This document shows positions 17,806-19,242 of a DNA stretch of 32,000 nucleotides, in pieces. The number at the start of each line of letters is the position of its first letter. Position 1 is the stretch's first letter. Location of the stretch: the NCBI GenBank assembly GCA_963666485.2, contig CAXXUO010000009.1, positions 131,385 to 163,384 on the forward strand, written 5' to 3'. Position numbers and translations under genes: made by a program. Source of the DNA: Syntrophorhabdaceae bacterium. Its GTDB lineage: Bacteria > Desulfobacterota > Syntrophorhabdia > Syntrophorhabdales > Syntrophorhabdaceae. The notes beneath the pieces are model-generated. The model was not told where the DNA came from, did not search any database, and was given only the letters and a program-made list of their open reading frames with translations.

Positions 17806-18942
17806 ATGTTGGAGCAGCAGAACATCGGCCAATCATCCCCCGTTTCTCGCCCCGGGGACAGCCTTGAATTCCCTATCTTTCGCCCTCAGCCAGTGTATCA
17901 GCCCGAGCGGCCTGCCTATTGCGAGGGCGATGTCCTGCCCCCATGGATCACCGGGTTCGTATCAACCGGCGCGGGGAAGATACCGGTCGCCGGCACGACG
18001 CTGAACTTCAGCGACACCCGGGGAAGCTGGAAGGCGAGGTGGGGACTCAACCGCATGAACTACAGGGTCCGCCCCGGGCTTTACGGGATCGGAGAACCCG
18101 ACGCGTCGTCCCCCGTTTTTCTTTCCGCCAATTACAAGATGAGCTTTGACAGGCTGCGCAAAGAGCTCGGCGGCCTCGACGCATGGGTGATGGTCCTCGA
18201 CACAGACGGCATAAACGTCTGGTGCGCAGCGGGAAAAGGCACCTTCGGGACCGAGGAGATCGTGAGGAGGATAGCGGCCGTGGAACTGTCCCGCATCGTC
18301 TCGCACCGCACGATCATCTCACCCCAGCTCGGCGCGCCCGGCATCGCGGCGCACGAGGTCCGGAAAAGATCGGGCTTCAAAGTCGTGTACGGCCCCGTGC
18401 GTGCGTGCGACATCAAGGAATTCATGAAGGCGGGGTTGAAGGCGACACCCGCGATGCGTGCCGTCACGTTCGGCTTCGCCGAAAGGCTGGTGCTCACGCC
18501 GATCGAGATCGTGAACATAGTGAAGCCGATGCTCGGCATCGCCGCGGCTCTTGCTATCTTTCATTTTATCGGGATAGTTAAGGCGGATCTGTGGGGCATA
18601 TACCCGTTCATCGGCGCGATATTCGCGGGTACGGTTGCCGGGCCCGCCCTTCTGCCGTGGCTCCCCGGCAGGGCATTTTCGGTAAAGGGGGCCGTCATCG
18701 GGCTTGCGTGGACATTCATCGTGCTTTATTTTGGGCTCACCCGCTACGGGATGCTGAACGGTCTCGCGCTCTTTTTGCTCCTTCCGGCAATATCGGCCTT
18801 CCTGACGCTCAACTTCACCGGCGCCTCGACATATACCTCGCTCTCCGGTGTGCGGCGGGAGATGAAATTCGCGGTCCCGGTCATTGTCGCGTCAGCAGTC
18901 CTCGGCCTTGGCATCTTTATAGCCGGGCGGTTCTTTTCGTGA
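17806..18942 (+). CDS. hgcA: Mercury methylation corrinoid protein HgcA
   Basis: Diagnostic cap-helix motif NVWCAAGK (GINVWCAAGKGTFGT) in a CFeSP-like corrinoid-binding domain, followed by about five hydrophobic transmembrane segments in the C-terminal half. Confidence 0.9.
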   Translation: MLEQQNIGQSSPVSRPGDSLEFPIFRPQPVYQPERPAYCEGDVLPPWITGFVSTGAGKIPVAGTTLNFSDTRGSWKARWGLNRMNYRVRPGLYGIGEPDASSPVFLSANYKMSFDRLRKELGGLDAWVMVLDTDGINVWCAAGKGTFGTEEIVRRIAAVELSRIVSHRTIISPQLGAPGIAAHEVRKRSGFKVVYGPVRACDIKEFMKAGLKATPAMRAVTFGFAERLVLTPIEIVNIVKPMLGIAAALAIFHFIGIVKADLWGIYPFIGAIFAGTVAGPALLPWLPGRAFSVKGAVIGLAWTFIVLYFGLTRYGMLNGLALFLLLPAISAFLTLNFTGASTYTSLSGVRREMKFAVPVIVASAVLGLGIFIAGRFFS

Positions 18943-18954
18943 GAGGAACGAGAT

Positions 18955-19242
18955 ATGAAACAGCACTACCTTGAAAATGTAAGCACACTTCAACTGAACC
19001 CCGACAGGTGCACGGGGTGCGGGATGTGCTGCGATGTCTGCCCGCATGACGTGTTTGAACTCTCCGGGAAAAAGGCGCATATCCGCAATGTCGATGCCTG
19101 CATGGAATGCGGCGCCTGCGCGCGGAATTGCGCGTTCGGCGCTATAGCCGTCAATGCGGGCGTGGGCTGTGCAACGGGGATAATCATCGGCGCGCTGACC
19201 GGTACGGAGCCGAACTGCTGCGGCAGCGGGTCATGCTGCTGA
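18955..19242 (+). CDS. hgcB: Mercury methylation ferredoxin HgcB
   Basis: 95 aa with two CX2CX2CX3C motifs (CTGCGMCCDVCP and CMECGACARNC), an extra conserved Cys (GVGCATG) and a C-terminal vicinal Cys pair (CCGSGSCC). It starts 12 nt after hgcA. Confidence 0.9.
   Translation: MKQHYLENVSTLQLNPDRCTGCGMCCDVCPHDVFELSGKKAHIRNVDACMECGACARNCAFGAIAVNAGVGCATGIIIGALTGTEPNCCGSGSCC

Follow-up and report, generated by a model that had tools for sequence, protein, structure and literature searches.

In Pseudodesulfovibrio ND132, the mercury-methylation genes hgcAB are controlled by an ArsR/SahR-like regulator whose gene lies upstream and is transcribed together with them (10.1101/2022.10.17.512643). MarR-type regulators lie upstream of hgcA in Geobacter daltonii and Dethiobacter, and a small number of bacteria have GntR or MarR genes linked to hgcAB (PMC10349881); among archaea, the described hgcAB-linked regulators include PrlF/AbrB-like genes, and antitoxin-like genes have also been published from positions upstream of hgcA. 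The hgcAB pair considered here is located in a 32,000-nucleotide (nt) stretch of DNA from a Syntrophorhabdaceae bacterium (the window, from whose first letter positions are counted). Unlike the pairs of Pseudodesulfovibrio mercurii ND132 and Geobacter sulfurreducens, it lacks a dedicated upstream regulator, and hgcA starts 17 nt behind cysE, within a string of iron-sulfur (Fe-S) and cysteine genes. In some related loci, hgcAB is set apart from cysE by a terminator, a promoter and a marR gene; judged from the aligned loci, these insulating elements have been lost in the window's subclade, and we regard read-through from an Rrf2-linked promoter as the most likely source of hgcAB mRNA, with moderate confidence in the reading as a whole. 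A lineage-specific, regulator-less hgcAB operon of this kind appears to be undescribed; in a literature search of incomplete coverage, nothing was found that links hgcAB to nifS, nifU, cysE or Rrf2. The arrangement bears on how hgcAB expression is controlled and on what the pair is for. The abundance of hgcA genes is a poor predictor of methylmercury production.

Identity of the hgcAB pair

A sequence-only reading of the window had named the pair hgcAB, had called the organism a predicted methylator, and had proposed scoring both genes with hidden Markov models (HMMs). Both designations stand. HgcA (17806–18942, plus strand; 378 amino acids) scores 448.5 bits against NCBIfam NF040863, for which the curated equivalog cut-off is 275, and covers profile positions 3–324 of 325. 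HgcB (18955–19242, plus strand; 95 amino acids) reaches 121.3 bits against NF040864 (cut-off 99) over the full length of the profile (1–93 of 93), and every diagnostic motif is present in the two proteins. Neither reaches the cut-off of 285 for the HgcAB-like fusion model NF043039, which represents a non-methylating paralogue (195.1 bits for HgcA and 54.7 for HgcB), and by these scores the pair differs from that fusion.

The cap-helix motif NVWCAAGK occupies residues 137–144 of HgcA (nt 18214–18237), with the cap-helix cysteine at Cys140. The corrinoid-type domain matches Pfam PF03599 at 43.1 bits against 24.8; this family, of the corrinoid iron-sulfur protein (CFeSP) type, is the only Pfam match in HgcA, and the sequence relatives of HgcA in the PDB are exclusively CFeSP large/gamma subunits (E ~1e-9). 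Five hydrophobic segments are found in the C-terminal part by the Kyte-Doolittle scale (approximately residues 232–260, 265–286, 289–311, 314–335, and 352–373), and the window's HgcA retains the family residue at every invariant column of a 27-sequence HgcA alignment. HgcB, in which Pfam detects Fer4 domains, contains two CX2CX2CX3C motifs (CTGCGMCCDVC, residues 19–29, and CMECGACARNC, residues 49–59), a Cys73-equivalent at Cys72 in GVGCATG, and a terminal CC pair (Cys94–95). Its gene lies directly downstream of hgcA, across a gap of 12 nt that holds a GAGGA Shine-Dalgarno sequence.

By these features, hgcAB is a bona fide predicted mercury-methylation pair, in which HgcA is predicted to be a Cys-capped cobalamin corrinoid protein with five transmembrane (TM) helices, and HgcB a ferredoxin with two [4Fe-4S] clusters. 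It resembles HgcAB of P. mercurii ND132 and G. sulfurreducens (Parks et al. 2013; PMC11588087 for the biochemistry) in the CFeSP-like domain, the NVWCAAGK motif and the five TM helices, in the adjoining dicluster ferredoxin with its Cys73-equivalent and C-terminal CC, and in passing the equivalog cut-offs. As a gene pair it is unremarkable, and the annotation pipeline of NCBI would label it correctly.

The hgcAB slot in the window and in related loci

In the window, hgcAB follows four genes on the same strand, namely a HydE-family radical S-adenosylmethionine (SAM) gene (13691–14752; TIGR03956, 330.1 bits against 254.6), a three-domain nifU (14809–15645; TIGR02000, 374 against 273), the cysteine desulfurase gene nifS (15642–16823; TIGR03402, 644.5 against 530.75), and cysE, a long-form serine O-acetyltransferase gene with matches to EpsC/CysE models (16836–17788). 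The open reading frame (ORF) of nifU opens at 14758, and the start common to its relatives is 14809, which gives the same 278 residues as in these. From the hydE-like gene to hgcB, the genes are separated by 56 nt, a 4-nt overlap, 12, 17, and 12 nt. The cysE stop codon TAA is at 17786–17788 and the hgcA start codon ATG at 17806, and the 17 nt between them (17789–17805) leave no room for a terminator. The sequence-only reading had described this junction as free of terminators; its coordinates are exact and the scan detects no terminator-like site there, such sites elsewhere occurring at chance level (6 found, 6.2 expected). Nothing promoter-like better than chance is found by the scan near hgcA in the window, nor in the related locus L084. 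The arrangement has the features of a single operon: one strand, short gaps, and neither terminator nor promoter between cysE and hgcA.

The likely promoter of this gene string lies in a control region (13559–13690) that it shares with a divergent gene for an Rrf2-family regulator (13112–13558, minus strand; PF02082, 132.7 bits; TIGR00738, 128 against 73). As the sequence-only reading had claimed, a consensus promoter is present: the scan lists TTGACA-17-TATAAT at 13601–13629, identical to the sigma-70 consensus in 12 of 12 positions, and facing the regulator gene TTGACA-17-TATACT at 13614–13586 (11 of 12). These are the only strong promoter matches within 6.7 kb, and their −35 boxes share part of an inverted repeat, the palindrome TTGACATGTGTCAA. 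The region also contains a conserved element, CCTACTAAnTTAATGGGAATAGTATAGA, which is a candidate Rrf2 operator. The control region is conserved across eight loci of the family, exactly so in the window's subclade, and L084 has an identical 12/12 promoter. Cysteines 88, 93, 100, and 106 of the regulator fall where IscR carries its cluster ligands. As in IscR/Rrf2-controlled isc and nif operons (iscR-iscSU, nifUS), a leading or divergent Rrf2 gene with Cys ligands is combined with a NifU scaffold, a NifS desulfurase, and a conserved operator-like element that overlaps the promoters. Unlike these, the operon in the window begins with a HydE-family gene, includes cysE, and ends with hgcAB, and its regulator scores below the IscR and CymR equivalogs.

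The slot was compared across 11 loci of the family; among named sequences, those of Syntrophorhabdaceae and Syntrophorhabdus match the window's NifS best. In L004 and L171, cysE is followed by an intrinsic terminator, a promoter, a marR gene that overlaps hgcA, hgcB, and a convergent cusA. The terminator is a GC-rich hairpin with a U-run, with a stem of 10 bp in L004 and 9 bp in L171; the fold of the former has an energy of −27.9 kcal/mol (z = −4.0), and none of 200 shuffled sequences is as good. The promoter before marR, TTGACA-17-TATAGT/TATACT, matches the consensus in 11 of 12 positions. In L004, L171 and L085–L087, the gene directly upstream of hgcA overlaps its start, has a promoter of its own and encodes a small winged-helix regulator in which cysteines are paired; it is of the MarR type (PF01047, 47.9 bits; the PF01022 match is weak), and its gene is absent from the window. 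In the window, L001, L002/L003, L084 and the P0002 contig, cysE is followed after 17–21 nt by hgcA and hgcB, with no marR, terminator, or promoter. In L170 the distance is ~77 nt, also with no marR. L168, the closest relative of the window in NifS and NifU (93%), has no hgcAB, cysE facing cusA directly, and in L169, which has neither hgcAB nor a cus operon, cysE faces a SurA-like gene.

In a set made up of 80 species-representative genomes and 80 metagenome contigs (HgcA identity up to 66%), only L004 has the synteny. A metagenome scan for closer relatives returned nothing above 66% HgcA identity and no further member of the subclade, and the fusion of cysE to hgcA appears confined to one small clade within this family, a restriction that the sequence-only reading had missed. 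The 26-nt spacer between cysE and cusA in L168 (10157–10182) resembles the 3′ coding end of hgcB (15 of 17 nt, a match equalled by 17 of 2000 shuffles), and is probably a scar of hgcB left by a secondary deletion of hgcAB. The L169 spacer (10151–10168) looks similar.

Selection on the genes was assessed from the ratio of nonsynonymous to synonymous divergence (dN/dS). Within the marR-less subclade it is 0.11–0.13 for hgcA and ~0.06 for hgcB, and 0.02–0.07 for nifS, nifU, and cysE. With dS of 0.8–1.8 in the subclade, and above 1.5 between the window and its relatives, these low ratios mean that the fusion is old and that hgcAB has been held under purifying selection. The HgcA distance is ~2.8–3 times the NifS+NifU distance in all pairs within the family, and this constant ratio fits vertical descent of hgcAB at the slot, with repeated loss of marR, hgcAB, and the cus operon.

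We propose that the ancestral locus was a separate marR-hgcA-hgcB unit, situated just downstream of an Rrf2-controlled hydE-like-nifU-nifS-cysE operon, from which an intrinsic terminator and a promoter of its own insulated it. Loss of terminator, promoter and marR in the window's subclade would have made hgcA and hgcB the fifth and sixth genes of a six-gene operon transcribed from the promoter at 13601–13629. Expression of hgcAB would then follow the signal, perhaps Fe-S or cysteine status, to which the Rrf2 regulator responds, and not a dedicated sensor of the MarR or ArsR type. If the fusion works in this way, the methylation potential of these widespread syntrophs would track Fe-S or cysteine demand rather than exposure to metals or metalloids, and the sister lineages with and without marR at one locus would provide a clean comparative test of hgcAB regulation.

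The marR regions themselves (L004, 6147–6841; L171, 10149–10841) contain, beyond the terminator-insulated promoter, AT-rich repeats TGTATAGTACAACTAATGTATAATACA that look like a candidate operator. Two pairs of cysteines in the MarR proteins of these two loci, one in TECCG and one in CCGN/CCQ, suggest a sensor of thiophilic metals or of redox state.

Sources of hgcAB transcription

Read-through from the Rrf2-linked promoter is best supported because the sister loci are insulated, the insulating elements are lost in the subclade, the upstream promoter is conserved, and no promoter signal is found near hgcA. The view of the sequence-only reading that hgcAB forms the distal end of the hydE-like-nifU-nifS-cysE string is strongly supported by the comparison; co-transcription itself, control by Rrf2, and the physiological signal are what we infer from the arrangement, and a coupling of hgcAB to cysteine or Fe-S status would follow from these.

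Several observations weigh against this reading, two of which, the frameshift in cysE and the missing N-terminal CC motif of HgcA, the sequence-only reading had missed. Compared with intact orthologues of 317–318 residues, cysE is one nt short in a C-run at ~17019–17027 (tblastn, two frames), so that the frame of ATG-16836 ends at 17102 and the remainder carries on in the frame of 16862. If real, the lesion would make cysE a pseudogene, and the ~690 untranslated nt could cause Rho-dependent polarity and reduce read-through into hgcAB. An assembly (long-read indel) error is likelier, since metY, the O-acetylhomoserine sulfhydrylase gene (11713–13032, minus strand), is also broken into three ORFs in different frames, its orthologue in L084 being intact with 438 residues, and the related long contig L001 contains many split genes. 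The Rrf2 regulator passes the Rrf2 superfamily model alone and reaches the cut-offs of neither the IscR (TIGR02010, 122 against 207.55) nor the CymR equivalog (NF047409, 127.9 against 195).

The third observation concerns the CC pair in the N-terminal extension of HgcA, which is present in 96 of 119 relatives (out of the 120 HgcA sequences closest to the window's, those with the cap-helix motif), and in the full-length members of the window's own subclade. Residues 1–61 of the window's HgcA (nt 17806–17990) contain no CC, and instead a single cysteine, Cys39. A hidden extension read through UGA is impossible, because no in-frame TGA lies upstream of hgcA and the frame is closed by TAA at 17779–17781. 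N-terminal CC/CU motifs are not among the HgcA residues proven essential. They were described by Haft (10.1101/2022.07.06.499078), and constitute a common accessory feature and no requirement of the family; their absence is a further difference from HgcA of ND132 and G. sulfurreducens.

Finally, a promoter embedded in cysE is possible, which leads to the strongest of the alternatives, namely that hgcAB has kept or gained a weak constitutive promoter of its own, at the junction or within the 3′ end of cysE, and that adjacency to cysE has no regulatory effect. A candidate is a lone TATAAT (17784–17789) that spans the cysE stop codon and does not vary among the four subclade sequences aligned, and in model strains hgcAB is expressed at very low, apparently constitutive levels (PMC11588087). 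However, the motif has no acceptable −35 box at 16–18 nt and is not listed by the promoter scan. Moreover, cysE also ends in GTATAAT in L169 and in GTATAGT in L168, both of which have no hgcAB; these letters encode Val-stop and do not form an element dedicated to hgcAB. Over the final 150 nt of cysE, variation at synonymous sites is normal and gives no signal of an embedded promoter, which speaks against one, and even with such a promoter read-through from upstream would go unblocked. We consider a private promoter unlikely.

The same cysE endings in L168 and L169, together with alignments to L004, led us to reject the TATAAT and the hgcA start region as relics of the marR promoter and start. 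In these free-gap alignments, L001 and L002 give significant matches (4 and 3 of 500 shuffles as good, respectively), and L084 and the window do not (198 and 93 of 500).

A second alternative places the meaningful context of hgcAB on its other side, where a heavy-metal efflux operon of the resistance-nodulation-division (RND) type, ytkA-OMP-cusB-cusA (19295–25707, minus strand; TIGR00914, 1097 bits against 701.45), converges on hgcB. The stop codons of hgcB and cusA are separated by 52 nt (19243–19294), a spacer with no convincing terminator (fold z = +0.94 relative to shuffles; scan empty). The operon resembles CusCBA/CzcCBA efflux systems in its outer membrane protein (OMP), membrane-fusion protein and heavy-metal RND pump, with matches to PF16576 (CusB/HlyD) and PF02321 (OEP), and adds a small YtkA-like periplasmic protein with a YtkA Pfam match. 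Under this alternative, hgcAB and the operon would form a functional module, for example for export of Hg(II) or methylmercury. The window, L004 and L171 indeed have orthologous operons opposite hgcAB (CusA 81–85% identical), and in L087, a Syntrophus-labelled metagenome-assembled genome (938–9515), ytkA-OMP-cusB-cusA lies in tandem on the same strand directly upstream of marR-hgcA-hgcB (CusA 81%). The two modules are nevertheless separable: the operon is kept in L168 after the deletion of hgcAB, and L084, L002, L001, the P0002 contig, and L170 have kept hgcAB but not the operon. When the five syntenic contigs (L001–L004 and L084) are set aside, a CusA-like gene is found within 10 kb at just 3 of 162 hgcA loci, and the co-occurrence within the family, the only place where the association is seen and one that generic CusCBA/CzcCBA systems do not share, is explained by shared ancestry. 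An insertion specific to the window was discarded because L168, L171, and L004 carry orthologues at the same position; by its distribution, the operon was already present in the ancestor of the family, and some relatives have lost it. The convergent operon noted in the sequence-only reading is a real neighbour, but a functional link to hgcAB is not supported, and we regard such a module as very improbable.

The least probable explanation is that hgcAB is a silent or decaying remnant left by the loss of its promoter and regulator, which would agree with the disappearance of the pair from the same slot in the close relatives L168 and L169, with the probable hgcB scar in the former, and with the missing CC motif, but both ORFs are intact despite indels elsewhere in the assembly, dN/dS is 0.06–0.13 over the subclade with saturated dS, all invariant family residues are kept, and the HMM scores are far above the cut-offs.

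Fe-S and cysteine genes around hgcAB, and minor features

The sequence-only reading had suggested a survey of hgcAB neighbourhoods for linkage to nifS, cysE, and rrf2. The 162 hgcA loci that remain without the five syntenic contigs provided 1.69 Mb of flanking sequence for such a survey. The fusion of cysE to hgcA does not recur there; Fe-S and cysteine genes appear to be in mild excess near hgcAB. Matches were obtained for NifS-like proteins at seven loci, CysK-like PALP at six, Rrf2 at five and CysE at three, distributed over ~10 mutually divergent HgcA lineages. Of the control families, PmbA, AAA_28, RidA and class-IV aminotransferase were found at no locus, HGD-D and rubrerythrin at one each, and the paralogue-rich GGDEF at five. 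With copy numbers that differ between families and no genome-wide null, these counts suggest, as a lead, that Fe-S and cysteine genes are mildly and recurrently associated with hgcAB.

Individual cases are L095, L098, L120, L114, L060, L046, L141, L088, and L092, where Rrf2-NifS(-NifU), CysE and/or a CysK-like gene occur within 10 kb of hgcAB, and where HgcA is ~50–60% identical between these unrelated lineages. In L060, cysK-cysE is located right behind hgcB, and in L095 and L098, rrf2-nifS lies 2.4–2.9 kb downstream.

Downstream of rrf2 on the minus strand of the window are metY (in the three pieces described above), metX and metW (9914–13032), and the order rrf2-metY-metX-metW recurs in L002, L084, L170, and L171. 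The methyl donor of purified HgcAB is SAM (PMC11588087), which makes the control region shared with metY-metX-metW noteworthy. A broader reading, in which HgcAB was captured by an Fe-S/cysteine regulon after a natural deletion of its MarR sensor, possibly as one instance of a general tie to thiol, Fe-S and SAM metabolism, would be consistent with the occurrence of NifS, Rrf2, CysE and CysK-like genes near unrelated hgcAB, with the sulfur-trafficking genes around the pair, and with SAM as methyl donor. We consider this broader reading decidedly unlikely; if true, Syntrophorhabdaceae with and without marR would constitute a natural experiment on the native role and the environmental triggers of mercury methylation.

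The sulfur-trafficking genes form a supercluster of ~25 kb around hgcAB (5579–13032 and 26284–29321, in addition to the Fe-S/cysteine operon), much of which is syntenic across the family. Besides this operon, it comprises thiH-thiG-thiE, thiF-rhodanese, metW-metX-metY, mnmA, and genes for a PP-loop ATPase and a CysK-like PALP enzyme.

Some minor features were noted within the upstream operon. ARAGORN predicts a tRNA-Ala(AGC) of 95 nt inside cysE (17534–17628, minus strand), which reaches the gathering threshold of no Rfam tRNA model and is probably a false positive; the Rfam scan of the window returned neither a riboswitch nor any other RNA family. A perfect 8-bp hairpin, TTCAGGCC-GGTAC-GGCCTGAA, occurs at 14763–14783 in the 56-nt gap between the hydE-like gene and nifU; it has no U-run and could be an element for processing or stability. 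Between the promoter and the start of the hydE-like gene (within 13636–13690) lies a second conserved leader element, ATTATCCTATCTGT...GTATG.ATTTTATGTATTATATT, common to the aligned family loci that reach that far and matched by nothing in Rfam. Public calls of the HydE-like gene start ~30 codons too early and cross the conserved promoter (L084, 3784–4938; L002, 5801–6940; L169, 5950–7110); in the window this early frame contains stop codons, which makes the ATG corresponding to 13691 the start common to these loci.

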